Notes: generated by a model not told the origin, from the sequence alone. A stretch of DNA of 64,000 nucleotides from Escherichia coli (GCF_044647545.1 NZ_CP172818.1); one strand, 5' to 3'; shown: positions 4,755-30,599, counted from the stretch's first letter. Numbers and translations are program-made.

Positions 4755-5138
4755 TTAGTGTGCGGTTGAGGCGGAAAACAGCCAGAAAGCCAGTGCGGTC
4801 ATGGCAAAAGACCCCAGAAGGTTGACGAAAACGTTCAGTAACGCCCAGCCAAAGCGGCCCTCTTGTAACAAAAACACCACTTCTGCCGAAAATGTTGAGA
4901 AGGTTGTTAGACCGCCACAAAATCCGGTGGTGATTAATACTTTCCACACTGGATCAATGTTCGTCATCCTGCTAAACCAGGCGAATCCCATTCCTATGAT
5001 GAATGCCCCAATCAGGTTTGCAGCCAGCGTCCCCAACGGAATCGCCTGATGCAGCGGGTTAAATCGCATACTTAACAGCCATCTCGCCACGCTTCCCGTA
5101 CCACCGCCTATAAAAACTGCTAAAAGAAGTTGTAACAC
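4755..5138 (-). CDS. crcB: Fluoride channel CrcB/FluC, 127 aa
   Basis: Small four-TM membrane ORF recognised as CrcB. Confidence 0.9.
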
Positions 5139-22775: not shown

Positions 22776-23759
22776 TTACAGTAAATCTTCAATCTCACGG
22801 ATTTTTTGACTGACATCCCTGGTACCGGATGACTGAGCTTTACGATACAGATCGAGAGCCTGTCGGAGATCGACAGGTCTTCCTTCTCCGTAATGATACA
22901 TAATGGCAAGGTTATACCAGGCAGTGGCATTATCGCATTCAGCGGCTTTCGTAAACCATTCAAAGGCGGCCTGATAATCTTTCTCAACGCCTTGTCCATG
23001 TTTATACATATAACCGATGTTGACGTAAGCGCCGACGCTTTCCTGAGCGGCAGCCTTCAGATACCAGTACATCGCTTGCTTATAGTCCTGGTCCACCCCT
23101 TCGCCAGCGTTATAATCCCATGCAATTTGAAACTGGGCATGCCGATTACCCTGCTGTGCGCTTTTCAAATACCAGAATGCGGCGAGTGTCTTATTTTGAG
23201 CAACGCCTTCTCCGTCTTTATAGAGATCGGCCAGGTTGTCTTGCGCGTAACTATGGCCTTGTAATGCAGCTTGTTTGTACCAGAAAAATGCCAGCGCATA
23301 GTCTTGTGCGACTCCGTTGCCATTTCTGTACATCCACCCAAGATTATTTTGCGCATAAGACATTCCGCTCTCCGCGGCTATCTGATACCAGGCAACCGCT
23401 TCTTTATAGTTGGGGTCTTCTCCACGATCCTGTATCCAGCCAAGGGCGTTGGAAGCGAAAGTATGGCCTTGTAGGGCAGCTTTTTTCAGCCAAAAGATGG
23501 CTTGCCCATTATCTTTATGACGGCTTTTATCCTCGGTATACTTTTGCCCTAAGGAATATTGTGCTTCACAATGACCTTGCTCAGCGGCAAGCTTCAGCCA
23601 GTAAAAGGCCTTTTCGTCGTCCGGAGAGTCAATTGCGCTATCGCGATTATAATAAAACCCAATAATATATTGAGCCTCGCAATCGCCTTTTTCAGCACGT
23701 TCGATAATCTCATCTATTGATAAATTATCGCAGCAACTTGACGTAAAAATCATTATCAT
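22776..23759 (-). CDS. ybeQ: Sel1-repeat (TPR-like) protein YbeQ, about 325 aa
   Basis: About eight tandem ~36-aa repeats with the Sel1 signature (AxxWYxKAAxQGxxxAQxxLGxxY); no obvious signal peptide; exact start (23759 vs 23753) uncertain. Confidence 0.85.
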   Translation of the reverse strand: MIMIFTSSCCDNLSIDEIIERAEKGDCEAQYIIGFYYNRDSAIDSPDDEKAFYWLKLAAEQGHCEAQYSLGQKYTEDKSRHKDNGQAIFWLKKAALQGHTFASNALGWIQDRGEDPNYKEAVAWYQIAAESGMSYAQNNLGWMYRNGNGVAQDYALAFFWYKQAALQGHSYAQDNLADLYKDGEGVAQNKTLAAFWYLKSAQQGNRHAQFQIAWDYNAGEGVDQDYKQAMYWYLKAAAQESVGAYVNIGYMYKHGQGVEKDYQAAFEWFTKAAECDNATAWYNLAIMYHYGEGRPVDLRQALDLYRKAQSSGTRDVSQKIREIEDLL

Positions 23760-23916
23760 TTCCTTATGGTTGCATATAAAGCATATTATATTTTTATGTG
23801 TTCCATTTTTGCGTAAGCCTTATTTTATGCGTATTATGTTGCGTCAGAAAAGTATAAATAAATGAGCCTCGCAACGTGGTTAATATTCATTGAATGAATA
23901 TTTAAGGATAAATTAT

Positions 23917-24624
23917 ATGGACATGGAGTCGCAAAAAATATTGTTTGCACTTTCCACTCCGATGGAAATACGCAATGAATGCTGTTTACCTTCGCATTCA
24001 TCCCCCAAAATGTATTTAGGTACACGCTTTTTTGACCTTTCTTCCTCCTGGGGAATTGATGACCGTGATGACCTGCTGCGCACAATTCACCGAATGATCG
24101 ATAACGGTCATGCCGCTCGGTTGGCAGGGCTTTATCACCGCTGGTTTCGTTATTCTCCGTGTGAATGGCGTGACTATCTTGCTGAACTAAATGAGCAAGG
24201 TCAGGCTTATGCGCAATTTGTCGCCAGCACCGCCGAATGCTGTGGCGAAGGGGGAATCAAAGCCTGGGATTATGTCCGGATGGGTTTTTTAAGCCGAATG
24301 GGCGTACTTAATAACTGGTTGAGTGAAGAAGAAAGCCTGTGGATCCAGTCGCGCATTCATCTACGGGCTCTACGTTATTATAGTAACTGGCAGCAATACT
24401 TTGCCGGTTATACCTTTGGTCGGCAATATTGGCAGTCTCCCGAGGATGATGATCTGCCTTTATTACGTGAATTCTTAGCGCGTAAAGAATACGACGATTC
24501 CGGCAATGATATGTTTTATCAATTATTTGCCAGTGACGATGCATATTACGCGACCTTACCCTGGCAACCACTGGCTGACTACCCCACATGCCCGGAAACG
24601 CTTAAGGATATGAGCGACCTATGA
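23917..24624 (+). CDS. ybeR: YbeR, 235 aa, DUF1266-like protein (family name from memory); paralogue of YbeU
   Basis: Start chosen at internal ATG so length matches the YbeU paralogue; shares [20 protein letters not shown] and ATLPWQPL...LKD(M/V)SDL with YbeU. Confidence 0.8.
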
Positions 24625-26048
24625 AAAATTGCTGGAAGATTCTCGAAATAGAGGAAACGACTGACGTCGATATTATCCGCCGCGCTTATCTGGCGCTGTT
24701 ACCGTCCTTTCATCCAGAAACCGATCCGCAGGGTTTTAAACAACTTCGTCAGGCGTATGAGGACGCGCTACGGATTGCGCAGTCGCCTGCTAAATCTGTT
24801 TGGCAACCAGAAGAACATGAAGTTGCAGAACATGAAATTCTGCTCGCCTTTCGTGCGTTACTCGCCTCTGATAGCGAACGTTTTCTGCCCTCTGCCTGGC
24901 AGCGATTCATTCAGCAATTAAATTATTGCTCGATGGAAGATATTGATGAATTACGCTGGTCGCTGTGCACAATAGCCATGAACACTGCCCATTTATCCTT
25001 CGAGTGCGTGGTGTTATTAGCAGAAAGATTGCGGTGGTTGCAGGAGGAAAACGTCGGGGAAATAGACGAAGAAGAACTGGAATCCTTTTTATATGCCATT
25101 GCGAAGGGGAATGTTTTTAACTTCCAGACCATTCTGCATCTGCCCGTTGCCGTACAAAATGACACCATTGATTTTTACCAAATGTTCGCTCGGATTTGGT
25201 CATCGCATCCAGAATGGCTGACATTGTATTTAGCGCAACATCGCGCAGTGATTATCCCCGATGATGCAAATTTGCACAGAAATTTACTCCGCTGGTATAG
25301 CACAAGCCGTCTGGATATCCCCGAACTTCTGGATTACGCCCGGTCGTGGCGGGAAGCTGAACCTGATAATGAAGATGCGCGTTATTATGAATACGCGCAA
25401 CGCGTCTATTGTGGAGAAGGCGAAAGCCTGCTGGCAGAACTTTGTGACTACTGGCGCGAGTATCCCTCCACCCAGGCGGATGCTTTAATGTTGCAATGGT
25501 GCCGTCAGCATCGGGTCGATTATTACCCGTTAGTGGTGATGATGATTGAAGCGCGTGATCTGGTTAACGATCAGGGAAAACCGCTACTTTATGTCCCTGG
25601 TGACAGCGCTCGTACGCGTTTTCATTTATACGAAATACTCAGTGATGAAAAACTCTCTGCGCTGGGGCGTTCTCTGGTCGAGATGGTTTTGCACAAAGGA
25701 CGTAAGCCGCGGATCTCACTCACGCGTGATACAGAACATACCTTATGGTCATTATATCTAGTTGCCAAACAATTAGTGCAGGCCAGCCAACCGACAGAAG
25801 AATCATTAATGCCGATTGTGAGCCGCCTTGATGCAGAAGATCGTTGTCCTCTGGAAGCATTAATTATTCGACGGTTATTAATTCAGGCGGCGAATTTTAC
25901 CGAGAAGCAAACCGTCGAACCGGAGCCGCAACCGCAGTCGATGCCCGTTGACGATGGTGGGCCGGGCTGTCTGGGCGTCATCAAAATTATTTTCTACATT
26001 TTTATCTTTGCCGGTTTAATAGGGAAAATACTCCATCTGTTCGGGTGA
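24621..26048 (+). CDS. djlB: J-domain co-chaperone DjlB (YbeS), 475 aa, with C-terminal hydrophobic anchor
   Basis: N-terminal J-like domain ([33 protein letters not shown]), C-terminal hydrophobic segment ([21 protein letters not shown]); start overlaps ybeR stop as ATGA. Confidence 0.85.
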
Positions 26049-26057
26049 CAGTCGACG

Positions 26058-26612
26058 TTAATGTGCGGGAAGCCCGGCAAGTAATCTTTCCGCGTTTTTG
26101 TAATGTTGTTTGGCGGCCAGTTTTAACCATTTTTGAGATTCATAATGGTTAACATTAATACCTGAGCCATTTCTGTAGATCAAACCCAAAGTATATTGAG
26201 CATGAGCATACCCTTGTTCAGCTGCTTCCTTATACCAGAGAATTGCTTTACGGGTATCGGGTTTGACCCCCAGACCTTTGAGGTAGATCCACCCCAGTTT
26301 ACTTTGCGCGCGTGGATTTTCCTGTTCCGCTGATTGCTCATACCAGTATCTCGCCTGTGTATAATCCAGTGGTTTACCGTCGCTACCATGAAGATAAAAT
26401 TCTCCAAGGCGATATTGCGACGTTGAGTGACCATGAATCGCGGAAAGCTCCGTGGCTGCCGTGGTGAATGGAAGACTGCCCGGTGAGCTTAAATAATCAA
26501 AGGCATAATTCGCCATGGCTTTATCACGCAACGTCGTTTTCTTGGGTTGGCTAATACAGGTTATTGCTGCAACTATAAATATTGCGAATGTATACATTAA
26601 TTTTTTATTCAT
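26058..26612 (-). CDS. ybeT: Sel1-repeat protein YbeT, 184 aa, with N-terminal signal-peptide-like segment
   Basis: Hydrophobic N-terminus ([21 protein letters not shown]) followed by about three Sel1 repeats. Confidence 0.85.
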
Positions 26613-26713
26613 GTGTGAATGCTTCGATTTTCTTTTTATTTTGAAAGCGTCAAGTTTATACTCATCAATAATAAAAAAGTAGTCAGTTAATGCACTTAAG
26701 GGATTATTAACAA

Positions 26714-27421
26714 ATGAATAAGGAAGAACAATATCTTCTTTTTGCGCTTTCTACGCCCATGGAAATACTTAATCAGGGTTGCAAGCCCGCGCATGACTCG
26801 CCAAAAATGTATACCGGGATAAAAGAATTCGATCTCTCATCATCCTGGGGAATAAATAATCGTGATGATTTAATTCAGACTATTTATCAGATGACCGATG
26901 ATGGTCATGCCAATGATTTAGCTGGCTTATATCTGACATGGCATCGCTCTTCCCCTGAAGAGTGGAAAGCATTAAATGCTGGTGGCTCGGAGAGAGGGTT
27001 GATTTATACCCAATTCGTTGCCCAAACCGCTATGTGTTGTGGGGAAGGGGGAATCAAAGCCTGGGATTATGTGCGGATGGGTTTTTTATCACGGGTTGGT
27101 GTGCTCAACAAGTGGCTGACGGAAGACGAGAGTTTATGGCTGCAATCGCGCGTCTATATACGAGCACACCATTACTATCACAGCTGGATGCACTATTTTT
27201 CCGCCTATTCGTTAGGGCGTCTCTACTGGCAATCTTCTCAGTGCGAAGACAACGCTTCGCTACGCGAGGCGCTAACCCTGTACAAATACGATAGCGCCGG
27301 GAGTCGGATGTTCGAAGAGCTGGCAGCGGGAAGCGACCGTTTCTATGCCACGCTTCCCTGGCAGCCATTAACTGTCCAGCCTGAATGCCCGGTAACGCTT
27401 AAGGATGTGAGCGACCTATGA
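26714..27421 (+). CDS. ybeU: YbeU, 235 aa, DUF1266-like protein; paralogue of YbeR
   Basis: Collinear similarity to YbeR over the full length. Confidence 0.85.
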
Positions 27422-28869
27422 AAACATGTTGGCAAATCCTCGAAATTGAAAGCACGACGCAAATAGACATTATCCGCCAGGCTTATCTTGTTCGCTTACC
27501 GTTGTGTCATCCCGAAACCGATCCGCAGGGGTTTAAAGCATTACGCCAGGCCTATGAAGAGGCGCTGCGACTGGCGGTAAATCCTGTCGAGGAGGCAGAT
27601 GATGAAGAAAAAGATGCCGCCGCTGAACATGAAATACTACGTGCATTCAGGGCATTACTGGATTCTGAAAGTGATCGTTTTCAGCCCTCCGCCTGGCAGA
27701 AATTTATTCAGCAATTAAATACCTGGAACATGGAGGATGTCGATCAATTACGCTGGCCGCTGTGTGCAGTCGCTATAGAAGCGCGATATCTTTCATTAAA
27801 TTGTGCTTCTTTGCTGGCAGAGCGTTTGAACTGGCATTCGTTTAATGACAGCGAAGGAATGGATGAGGAAGAAAGGGAGGCTTTTCTTGAGGCCATTCAG
27901 GCTGGTGATTGTTTCGATTTCCTTAGCCTTCTGGAATATCCCGTCGCGTTGCAGAACCAGACTGTTGAGTATTACTTCGCGCTGGAACGCTGCTGCCGTT
28001 ACCATCCTGACTATGTCACTGCGTTTATGGCAATGGAAGGTCCGTGGTTCATTCCTGATGATGTCAAGTTACATCGCAAACTGTTGCGCTGGTACAGCTC
28101 GGTGAAAACAGGTATGGCGGAACTTATTCCTGTTGCCCAACAGTGGCAAGCAGAAAATCCAGAAAGCGAAGATGCCCGTTATTACCAGTGTGCGCAACGG
28201 TTGTACTGTGGCGAGGGGGAAAGCCTGCTTGCCGATCTCTGCGCATACCGGGAGAGTTACCCATCTACACAAGCTGATAATTTGTTGTTGCAGTGGAGCA
28301 AGCGTCATTGCCCGGATTATTTCGCGTTATTAGTGATGGTTATCGAAGCGCGAAGCATGATAGATGCGCAAGGTCAACCGTTGAAATATGTTCCTGGTGA
28401 GAGCGCCCGGACGCGGCTGTTATGGGCGGAAATTTTACATAGCGGAAAATTATCGCCGTTAGGTCAATCGTTTATTGAGTCGTTATTCTTCAAGCGCAAA
28501 GCATGGGCATGGTGGAAATCGAGAGTCGGTAGCGAGACAGAACAAGATTCACCGTTACTGGATTTGTATCGGGTAGCGGAACAGGTTGTGCTGGAAGCGT
28601 TCCCGAAACAAGAGATGCTGGCCCGTCTTAATACAAGGCTGGAAGGTGGAGATGCTCATCCATTAGAGGCCATTATCACGCGGATGCTGTTGACGAAAGT
28701 GAAACTCGAGCCGGAGGATGAAGATGTCGATGAGCCAACACCTGAAAACCACGAAGAAAAAAATGATGAGGATGAAAAACCACAGAGCATTACCAGCATT
28801 ATCAAAATCAGCTTAACGGTGCTGGTGATAGGTTATGCTCTCGGAAAAATCGCGATGTTGTTTAGCTGA
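27418..28869 (+). CDS. djlC: J-domain co-chaperone DjlC (YbeV), 483 aa, with acidic tail and C-terminal hydrophobic anchor
   Basis: J-like domain ([13 protein letters not shown]), acidic stretch ([24 protein letters not shown]), terminal hydrophobic helix; start overlaps ybeU stop as ATGA. Confidence 0.85.
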
Positions 28870-28928
28870 GGATGTGTTTTTTGCGCCGATGCCGGATGCA
28901 GCGTTTATGCCGCATCCGGCAGCCGTGT
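28870..28928. repeat. REP (repetitive extragenic palindrome) element between convergent djlC and hscC
   Basis: gccgatgccggatgcagcgtttatgccgcatccggcagcc palindrome typical of E. coli REP units. Confidence 0.6.
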
Positions 28929-30599
28929 TTAAGGGATCTCAATAGCCAAATAATCGCTCGCCCGTCGCCGAACTTCATCGACGCGGGCCATATCGTTTGA
29001 CTGCAACGCCGCATCAAAATCGGTGATCACCCGGCCGATCTCTTCTCGCTCGTCACCCAGCGCCCGCGCCCACAACTCTTCCAGTTTGGCCTTAAAGGTG
29101 CGGTTGATGAGCATATCGCGCGGATAAATTTTCAATGCGGATAACCGCGTCCGACTCTCTTCAATCTGCTGTGCGCTCAATGTTACAGGACTGTGATTAA
29201 TGACTCTGGACTTAACGCTGCCGTCTTCCAGAAGCACGTCAACTTCAAGCAACCCGTTGATATCATAACTAAAGCGAATATCAATCGACTGATAAGCCCC
29301 GGTTTTCTTCAACGGCACATCGAAGGATTCCACCAGAATGTTATTTTTAACTTTGTGGTTTTCTCCCTGATAGACGTTAACCGTAATTGAATCCTGTTCC
29401 CGGTGCATGGTCGAGTAAGTTTCTACACGCGACACCGGTACAGTGGTGTTTCGTTCAATAATCGGCGAGAAAATGCCGGAAACGCCCTGGCGGTTAACTT
29501 CAACACCCAACGAGTAAGGGCAAATATCAGTGAGGATCACCTCTTCAATATCTTCACTGCGTAAGCGGCAGGCGGCCTGGATTGCTGCGCCCAGCGCGAC
29601 AATGGTGCTCGGATCGTAACTTTGATACGGTAATTTGCCAAACAGACGCACGGCGATTCGCTGCACCAGCGGCATTTGTGATGCGCCGCCAACCAGCACC
29701 AGACTGTCGATTTGACTTGGCTTCAGACGTGCATCGCGCAACGCCTGTTCAATCGGTACTCGCAAGCGATTGAGCAGCGGCAACCACAAATCTTCCAGTT
29801 CGTTCTCGTAAAATTCGCACTCACGCGTTTCTTCCTGACACTGCCAGCTAATTTGCAGCGGTAATTGATTGCTGCATTTTGCCGCTTCCACGCTGGTGTA
29901 CAGGGCTGCCAGCTCACTTTCGTTGAGCATGTTTTTAGCCACTGCGGCGCGTTTTAAAACTTCATCCACCAGCATATGAGTAAAATCTTCGCCGCCAAGA
30001 AAGTTGTCGCCAGCGGAGGCGTGAACTTCAATCACCGGCGTGGCGTATTCGAGCACCGTGACGTCAAACGTGCCGCCACCGAGATCAAAAACCAGCGAGC
30101 GGGTATTTTGTTGCGTATGCAGGCCATATGCCATCGCAGCTGCTGTGGGTTCATTAATTAAGCGTACCGCATTTAACCCGGCTAACTCCGCTGCTAAACG
30201 GGTATGCTTGCGTTGTTCATCGCTGAAATAAGCCGGAACGGAGATCACCACATCTTTAATCGGACGTTGCAGAAATTCTTCGGCATCTTCTTTTAATGAG
30301 CGTAATACCAAAGAGGACAGTTCTGGCGCGTTAAATGTGTCGCTGCCTAACCGCCAGTTGGTATTACTGCCCATTGCACGTTTAAATAACGCTGCCGTTT
30401 TATCCGGATGCGAAGTACGCCGTGATACAGCCGGTTTTCCGACTAAAATATGATTATTTTCATCCATGCTAATTATGGATGGTGTTAAATATTCACCGAA
30501 CTTATTTGGAATTAATTGCGCGGCACCGTCTTTCCAGACGGCAATTAAACTATTGGTAGTACCGAGATCGATACCAATGGCGAGTTCTGCATTATCCAT
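28929..30599 (-). CDS. hscC: Hsp70-family chaperone HscC (Hsc62), 556 aa
   Basis: Hsp70 ATPase signatures (IGIDLGTTNS, DLGGGTFD, VLVGGASQMP) and substrate-binding domain. Confidence 0.9.
   Translation of the reverse strand: MDNAELAIGIDLGTTNSLIAVWKDGAAQLIPNKFGEYLTPSIISMDENNHILVGKPAVSRRTSHPDKTAALFKRAMGSNTNWRLGSDTFNAPELSSLVLRSLKEDAEEFLQRPIKDVVISVPAYFSDEQRKHTRLAAELAGLNAVRLINEPTAAAMAYGLHTQQNTRSLVFDLGGGTFDVTVLEYATPVIEVHASAGDNFLGGEDFTHMLVDEVLKRAAVAKNMLNESELAALYTSVEAAKCSNQLPLQISWQCQEETRECEFYENELEDLWLPLLNRLRVPIEQALRDARLKPSQIDSLVLVGGASQMPLVQRIAVRLFGKLPYQSYDPSTIVALGAAIQAACRLRSEDIEEVILTDICPYSLGVEVNRQGVSGIFSPIIERNTTVPVSRVETYSTMHREQDSITVNVYQGENHKVKNNILVESFDVPLKKTGAYQSIDIRFSYDINGLLEVDVLLEDGSVKSRVINHSPVTLSAQQIEESRTRLSALKIYPRDMLINRTFKAKLEELWARALGDEREEIGRVITDFDAALQSNDMARVDEVRRRASDYLAIEIP

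Follow-up and report, generated by a model that had tools for sequence, protein, structure and literature searches.

Proteins of the DUF1266 family are probably a conserved third component of the HscC chaperone system, translationally coupled to its J-proteins, because the gene order and the stop/start overlap that link them to this system are conserved across loci. We studied the leuS/ybeL–rihA/gltL interval of the Escherichia coli chromosome within a 64,000-nucleotide stretch of NZ_CP172818.1 (hereinafter the window, to which all coordinates refer unless a locus is named). Here two cassettes, ybeR-djlB (23917-26048) and ybeU-djlC (26714-28869), each consisting of a DUF1266 gene and a J-protein gene, lie beside hscC, the gene of a specialised Hsp70, in the strand order ybeQ(-) ybeR(+) djlB(+) ybeT(-) ybeU(+) djlC(+) hscC(-). 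The full explanation that we favour, an old duplicated unit and a DUF1266/J/HscC module in which the DUF1266 protein is coupled to the J-protein and docks on it, has in our estimate a probability of about 0.6. The genes themselves and the relation between DjlC and HscC are known; the linkage of DUF1266 to HscC appears to be new, and no description of it was found in the literature searched. An 8-kb query from this region is 100% identical to NZ_CP033850, and the gene names in the RefSeq annotation of that sequence agree with those in an earlier note on this DNA. The features of the two cassettes and hscC are as follows (aa, amino acids).

23917..24624, + strand: ybeR, DUF1266 protein, 235 aa (PF06889 E 1.7e-47, 162 bits against a cutoff of 27)
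24232..24291, + strand: ybeR codons 106-125, core motif (97% nucleotide identity with the ybeU copy)
24621..24624, + strand: ATGA stop/start overlap of ybeR and djlB (sequence)
24621..26048, + strand: djlB, class C J-protein, 475 aa (Pfam DnaJ E 2e-4, below cutoff; similarity to DjlC)
24711..24719, + strand: HPE motif of DjlB, residues 31-33, where HPD would be canonical (sequence)
25965..26045, + strand: C-terminal hydrophobic tail anchor of DjlB (translation)
26714..27421, + strand: ybeU, DUF1266 protein, 235 aa (PF06889)
27029..27088, + strand: ybeU codons 106-125, near-identical copy of the ybeR tract (codon-aware alignment)
27418..27421, + strand: ATGA stop/start overlap of ybeU and djlC (sequence)
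27418..28869, + strand: djlC (ybeV/hsc56/hscD), tail-anchored J-protein, 483 aa (activator of the HscC ATPase by published experiment)
27508..27516, + strand: HPE motif of DjlC, residues 31-33 (sequence)
28789..28866, + strand: C-terminal tail anchor of DjlC (translation)
28929..30599, - strand: hscC, specialised Hsp70, 556 aa (Pfam HSP70 E 1e-117; RefSeq)

Conservation of the DUF1266-J-HscC module

With YbeU as the query, HMMER retrieved from 1.8 billion representative proteins a subfamily of single-domain DUF1266 proteins (~230-270 aa, 24-40% identity), along with many multidomain proteins. An alignment of the YbeU-like subfamily then served as the probe for a survey of a single genome from each species, that is, from the DUF1266 side, and all open reading frames (ORFs) in the loci obtained were sorted against the seven E. 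coli proteins. The survey yielded 78 loci from 9 named genera: Escherichia, Klebsiella, Rahnella, Erwinia, Pectobacterium, Pseudomonas (about 55 species), Gilliamella, Marinobacter and Bowmanella. In each locus with sufficient flanking sequence, the order is the same: the DUF1266 gene, the J-protein gene on the same strand, and the gene of an HscC-type Hsp70, which is convergent with the J gene, Marinobacter excepted. Adjacency of the DUF1266 gene to a downstream J gene is found at 91/91 junctions, down to 24-26% identity of the DUF1266 protein to YbeU, so that the functional tie between the two families that the earlier note had proposed is stronger than it claimed. Nine distant DUF1266 proteins (24-40% identity) encoded in metagenomic and assembly loci (P0122, P0124 and neighbour P0160, P0167, P0169, P0171, P0175, P0189 and P0204) are all followed by a J-protein of the HPE type, and the Hsp70 is also found at distant DUF1266 loci where the contig allows. 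Duplications of the DUF1266-J pair occurred independently elsewhere, in loci L004 and L087. No fourth flanking gene family common to the genera was found in the locus set. A search for HscC homologues gave only close enterobacterial relatives.

Several of these loci show peculiarities of their own. The convergent J and Hsp70 genes of locus L012 overlap by 4 bases, the palindromic CTAG that is the stop on both strands (4780-4783 of that locus), and the same double-stop pattern recurs in many Pseudomonas loci, for example, L015, L017 and L018; because the stop is shared by both genes, there is no intergenic room for a terminator. In Escherichia sp. MOD1-EC7003 (L005, 3624-5003), an extra Djl-like J gene split into two ORFs is located 5' of ybeQ and looks like a third, decaying copy. 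A ybeU fragment at the end of contig NZ_WTWY01000015.1 (L009), labelled Paenibacillus sp., is 97% identical to the E. coli gene and is probably assembly contamination. A hybrid cassette suspected in one match of the search (H20) proved to have the normal arrangement and was rejected.

Paralogy of the two cassettes

Pairwise alignment of the cassettes at the DNA and protein levels, the check asked for in the earlier note, confirms its claim that ybeR-djlB and ybeU-djlC are collinear paralogues: YbeR and YbeU are 61% identical over 235 aa without gaps, and DjlB and DjlC are about 49% identical across the full length. The long stretches shared by YbeR and YbeU, including the C-terminal TLKD(M/V)SDL, are present as described, and so is the sequence cctATGAaaa at both junctions, with near-identical flanks; the pattern as a whole clearly exceeds what chance would give. 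Codon-aware alignment gives nucleotide identities of 63% for the DUF1266 genes and 57% for the J genes, with two peaks, one at the junction (26/27 nucleotides) and one at codons 106-125 of ybeR and ybeU (97%); over the last ten codons together with the junction, the cassettes are 93% identical. Outside these tracts, only ~50% of the identical residues are encoded by identical codons, which indicates that the duplication is old. In the tract of codons 106-125, ybeU of other Escherichia species reads CGAATGGGGTTTCTG, whereas the E. coli gene reads CGGATGGGTTTTTTA, which is ybeR-like; this difference points to a short, E. coli-specific patch of gene conversion between ybeR and ybeU as the putative source of part of the identity. 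The duplicated unit drawn in the earlier note was too small, as it lacked the Sel1 genes ybeQ and ybeT: each copy consists of a DUF1266 gene, the J-protein gene that follows it and a divergent Sel1 gene. Both copies lie beside hscC, and the note also missed HscC as the known partner of DjlC.

Stop/start overlaps at the DUF1266-J junctions

In both E. coli cassettes, the stop codon of the first gene (TGA) has three bases in common with the start codon of the second (ATG; 24621-24624 and 27418-27421). The ATGA overlap is present at 86 of the 91 junctions (about 94%). Among the survey junctions, 81 of 84 are ATGA and 3 of 84 are TAATG, all three from Pectobacterium; at the 7 further junctions, from distant loci, the genes overlap by four bases in 5 cases and are separated by 3-4 bases in the other 2. 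Lineages differ in the last sense codon (Ser TCA, Leu CTA or TTA, Glu GAA, Ala GCA, Thr ACA), with an A always preceding TGA; thus, the overlap has been maintained while the protein ends changed. At the Klebsiella junction, for example, ATGA and the peptide LKDVSDL are kept and synonymous sites differ. Both ybeR-djlB and ybeU-djlC (hscD) have been assigned as transcription units (PMC3946193, PMC5797941), so the sequence and the published operon assignments jointly place a stop/start overlap on one mRNA in each cassette, the arrangement of a coupled pair.

The DUF1266 proteins

Both E. coli proteins cover the full 175-position profile of PF06889 at scores far above the cutoff of 27 bits (YbeR, 162.3 bits; YbeU, 151.9 bits), and DUF1266 is their sole match in Pfam, with no homology to CbpM or IscU/NifU. 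The family alignment contains four invariant polar residues, R50, R121, R127 and E139, and three nearly invariant ones, H65, D118 and R150. YbeU is predicted, in a confident model, to adopt an all-helical fold; the model has no convincing relative among solved structures, and sequence searches of the Protein Data Bank detected no relatives of either DUF1266 or DjlC. Among 20 multidomain DUF1266 proteins, there are fusions to TPR, Cu_amine_oxidN1, DUF2510 and Peptidase_M54. The sole mention of DUF1266 in the literature searched is in a transcriptome table, and nothing there ties the family to HscC; one comparative paper remarks in passing that five proteins form a cassette. The names ybeR, ybeU, ybeQ and ybeT have 0 occurrences in the review PMC8215388.

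The J-proteins and HscC

DjlB consists of a J domain (residues 1-~60), a helical/TPR-like middle part and a C-terminal tail anchor. The shared architecture of DjlB and DjlC, with J-like N-termini, that the earlier note described is apparent, but the Pfam matches to DnaJ (PF00226) are weak (21.8 and 17.8 bits, respectively, against a gathering cutoff of 27.8), and both proteins contain HPE instead of the HPD tripeptide at residues 31-33. A distant J homologue in locus L083 scores 36.2 bits. The HPE motif, which is kept in nearly all J homologues examined and has been described as the one tolerated replacement of HPD, in DjlB and DjlC (PMC13254874), lies in the DjlC model between two helices (residues 16-25 and 36-54). 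The modelled body of DjlC appears to resemble TPR scaffolds; no TPR was detectable in the sequences of the Djl proteins.

Both proteins carry a hydrophobic stretch of 20-25 residues at the extreme C-terminus and no N-terminal signal, in agreement with their published description as tail-anchored; the insertion of DjlC into the inner membrane has been shown (Peschke 2018, cited in PMC8215388). The J-proteins of lineages other than Escherichia and Klebsiella have a length of about 900 aa and, at their end, a DUF805 membrane domain that replaces the tail anchor; membrane attachment is therefore conserved by different means.

HscC matches the Pfam HSP70 family with E 1e-117, is 100% identical to the RefSeq-annotated hscC and scores under the NCBIfam equivalog cutoffs for DnaK and HscA. 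DjlC stimulates the HscC ATPase (Kluck 2002, via PMC8215388), and DjlB is assumed to act on HscC in the same way (PMC8215388); HscC is thus the ATPase partner of DjlC and, presumably, of DjlB. Loss of hscC or of djlB together with djlC causes Cd2+ sensitivity, and loss of hscC causes ultraviolet (UV) sensitivity (PMC8215388). HscC, DjlB and DjlC are below detection during exponential growth (PMC8215388, PMC13254874).

The HscC homologues of loci L003-L082 share a semi-conserved C-terminal tail, both acidic and hydrophobic, ...LD(E/Q)L(R)(L/F/Y), and the tail of E. coli HscC is ...DYLAIEIP (28929-28960). By analogy with EEVD tails, this tail might, speculatively, be a docking peptide for the TPR-like body of the Djl proteins.

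A predicted YbeU-DjlC complex and a possible mechanism

To model the pair, YbeU, a 25-residue Gly/Ser linker and DjlC(1-430) were joined in one chain for AlphaFold2 (AF2), and the paired alignment supplied contained 25 cognate DUF1266/J pairs. The fused model has a mean predicted local distance difference test score (pLDDT) of 82.4 and a predicted template modelling score (pTM) of 0.76 over 690 residues; by part, pLDDT is < 50 for the linker, 54-76 for the J domain and mostly near 90 for the rest of DjlC. For two bodies of 235 and about 370 residues, each confidently folded but not placed relative to the other, a rough estimate is a pTM near 0.55; the observed value implies some confidence in the modelled position of YbeU against DjlC and lends indirect support to a physical complex. 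The TPR-like shape of the DjlC body, the fusion of DUF1266 to TPR repeats in unrelated proteins and the joint control of the locus by H-NS and SlyA also speak for the favoured explanation.

Under the favoured explanation, ribosomes that end translation on the DUF1266 gene would re-initiate at the overlapping ATG of the J gene, so that a single mRNA would give rise to DUF1266 and Djl proteins in a fixed ratio and near each other. The cytosolic DUF1266 protein (~235 aa) would dock, at the inner membrane, on the helical/TPR-like body of the Djl protein with which it is paired, and the resulting complex would be the substrate-selecting part of the system, presenting to HscC either DUF1266 itself or a client for which DUF1266 is the adaptor; the HPE J domain would recruit HscC and trigger ATP hydrolysis. 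We rank a stable adaptor subunit as the most likely role of DUF1266, followed by a dedicated client, as IscU is, and then by a modulator resembling CbpM.

Four known systems come closest. The HscC-DjlC system (Hsc62-Hsc56; Kluck 2002, Yoshimune 2002) comprises the same genes but was published as two-component, whereas here DUF1266 would be the third. HscA-HscB-IscU similarly combines a specialised Hsp70, a dedicated class C J-protein and a small partner encoded in the same locus, but DUF1266 is not homologous to IscU, nor are the Djl bodies homologous to the C-domain of HscB; furthermore, the HscC system is membrane-anchored, and its DUF1266 gene is coupled to the J gene by an overlap. CbpA-CbpM of gamma-proteobacteria likewise includes a small co-encoded protein specific for one J-protein, but with the reversed gene order, no CbpM-like domain in YbeR or YbeU, and DnaK rather than HscC as the Hsp70. 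The resemblance to the eukaryotic class C proteins with TPR, DNAJC3/P58IPK and DNAJC7/TPR2, is structural only: the J domain of Djl is N-terminal, with HPE instead of HPD, and Djl has a membrane anchor and no sequence-detectable TPR.

Evidence against coupling and complex formation

Several observations weigh against the favoured explanation. In bacterial genomes, no class of gene overlap is commoner than the four-base ATGA. Any mutation of ATGA damages one of the two genes, so its retention proves purifying selection on both genes but not on coupling; retention of ATGA by itself is therefore no proof of selection for coupling. RNA folding of four junctions gave z-scores of -0.9 to +0.5 relative to shuffled sequences, that is, no structure, so that coupling through the unmasking of an occluded start is unsupported, and the Shine-Dalgarno-like AAGGA is located 12-13 nucleotides upstream, beyond the optimal spacing. 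No DUF1266-DnaJ fusion occurs among the 20 multidomain DUF1266 proteins. The AF2 support is a single pTM value of one linker-fused chain in which the J domain has a pLDDT of 54-76. The cassettes are dispensable: of 5,426 complete E. coli genomes, 79% carry cassette 2 and 68% carry cassette 1, and about 19% of complete genomes have neither. Frameshifted ybeU alleles of 193 aa are found in several E. coli assemblies (P0031, P0070 and others). Finally, genomic SELEX (systematic evolution of ligands by exponential enrichment) lists an internal promoter between ybeR and djlB (PMC3946193), so that expression need not be strictly coupled. The earlier note had argued from the overlaps for stoichiometric co-expression and probably a physical complex; coupled, cognate expression is supported, the coupling need not be strict, given the reported promoter, and the complex is borne out only in part, by the pTM of the fused model.

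Alternative explanations

In the alternative that survives best, which we consider possible but unlikely, DUF1266 would be a dedicated client that is bound transiently by Djl and handed to HscC for remodelling, for example, as a membrane on/off switch. HscA/HscB with IscU is a precedent for a specialised Hsp70/J pair with one client encoded nearby (PMC8215388 for HscA/HscB), the conserved polar residues of DUF1266 are more suggestive of a functional site within the protein than of a pure scaffold, and its other domain contexts (TPR, Cu_amine_oxidN1, Peptidase_M54) fit a module that is active in its own right. A tight 1:1 coupling to the J-protein, however, is more typical of subunits, and the pTM of the fused chain suggests defined docking, although this is compatible with a client as well.

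A modulator comparable to CbpM, which would attach to the J domain or close to it and restrain the recruitment of HscC until a signal arrives, seems improbable to us. The CbpA-CbpM operon of gamma-proteobacteria, with a J-protein and its specific inhibitor, is the precedent (PMC8215388), and the strictly cognate pairs that remain after duplication, YbeR/DjlB and YbeU/DjlC, fit a specific regulator; against this, YbeR and YbeU have no relation to CbpM in Pfam, the gene order is opposite to that of cbpA-cbpM, and the J domain is the least confident part of the fused model (pLDDT 54-76), unlike a clamped state.

Ordinary operon compaction, in which the two proteins would share a pathway, the ATGA would persist only because a mutation in it harms one of the genes, and neither stoichiometry nor a complex would follow, agrees with the prevalence of such overlaps, the lack of structure or a strong Shine-Dalgarno signal at the junction, the reported internal promoter and the 5/91 junctions that drifted to TAATG or short gaps with the pair kept, but is opposed by an overlap in about 94% of the junctions despite 24-40% protein identity and changed flanking codons, by the invariant gene order and by the fused pTM of 0.76, and we give it little credence.

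Sel1 genes, regulation and distribution

The remaining features of the region flank the DUF1266-J pairs.

22776..23759, - strand: ybeQ, Sel1-repeat protein, 327 aa, 8 repeats, without signal peptide (Pfam Sel1 E 6e-62; RefSeq)
23760..23916, no strand: divergent control region of ybeQ and ybeR, AT-rich (GC 0.37 at 23500-23999)
26058..26612, - strand: ybeT, Sel1-repeat protein, 184 aa, 3 repeats, hydrophobic signal-like N-terminus (Pfam Sel1 E 1e-30)
28890..28921, no strand: REP-like palindrome between the convergent djlC and hscC (13-nt arms TGCCGGATGCAGC / GCCGCATCCGGCA, 92% complementary)

Consensus scans for promoters and terminators gave matches fewer than, or no more than, those in shuffled sequences and are uninformative.

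The Sel1 (PF08238) scores of YbeQ and YbeT are 204 and 105 bits, respectively, and the two proteins are 33-37% identical over the repeats. Sel1 genes accompany the DUF1266-J-Hsp70 module only in Escherichia. In the metagenomic locus L087 (1361-3586 and 6765-9119), however, Djl-like J-proteins have 4-5 Sel1 repeats at the C-terminal end, where a membrane anchor would otherwise be; this fusion ties YbeQ and YbeT to the same system. In a transposon-directed insertion-site sequencing (TraDIS) screen for resistance to phage Arnold, ybeT was in the top-hit group, and the Keio knockout behaved like the wild type (bioRxiv 10.1101/2025.12.01.691526).

The locus is H-NS-silenced. The ybeQ-ybeR intergenic region contains an H-NS site and constitutive promoters (PMC3946193); over-expression of SlyA induces ybeT (4.1-fold) and 'ybeU-hscD', and ybeT belongs to the H-NS regulon (PMC5797941). 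In enteroaggregative E. coli strain 042, one DUF1266 gene rises about 300-fold at 25 °C when hns is mutated (PMC7582179). In NZ_OZ043763 (L002), part of ybeQ, the whole of ybeR and most of djlB have been lost, and a ybeU frameshift has been reported from a Salmonella isolate.

Because the locus is silenced and accessory, a role in defence was considered. A scan of the seven proteins against PADLOC-DB v2 produced no match for YbeR, YbeU, DjlB, DjlC or HscC, and the Sel1 proteins gave marginal, repeat-driven matches to PtuA (E 5e-4 and 2e-3) with no passing stretch. A literature search for HscC and phage defence found no support. The Hsp70-containing conflict systems of PMC7159879 were rejected as a parallel, being GTPase/tubulin-centred, unlike this locus. 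A more far-reaching proposal, which we regard as quite doubtful, is that the triad would be a horizontally mobile, H-NS-silenced, membrane-anchored surveillance or stress module rather than a housekeeping chaperone, in which DUF1266 would be a sensor or effector with a new fold that is gated by the Hsp70 cycle, and the Sel1/TPR parts would recognise the trigger, such as envelope damage, metals or an invading element.

Implications

For HscC, the third Hsp70 of E. coli, Cd2+ and UV sensitivity are the sole reported phenotypes (PMC8215388). The linkage to DUF1266 is a testable lead on the cellular role of HscC. If DUF1266 is an obligate partner or a dedicated client, this would be the first functional context for a widespread domain of unknown function and, if true, would add a further bacterial three-part specialised Hsp70 system beside HscA-HscB-IscU.

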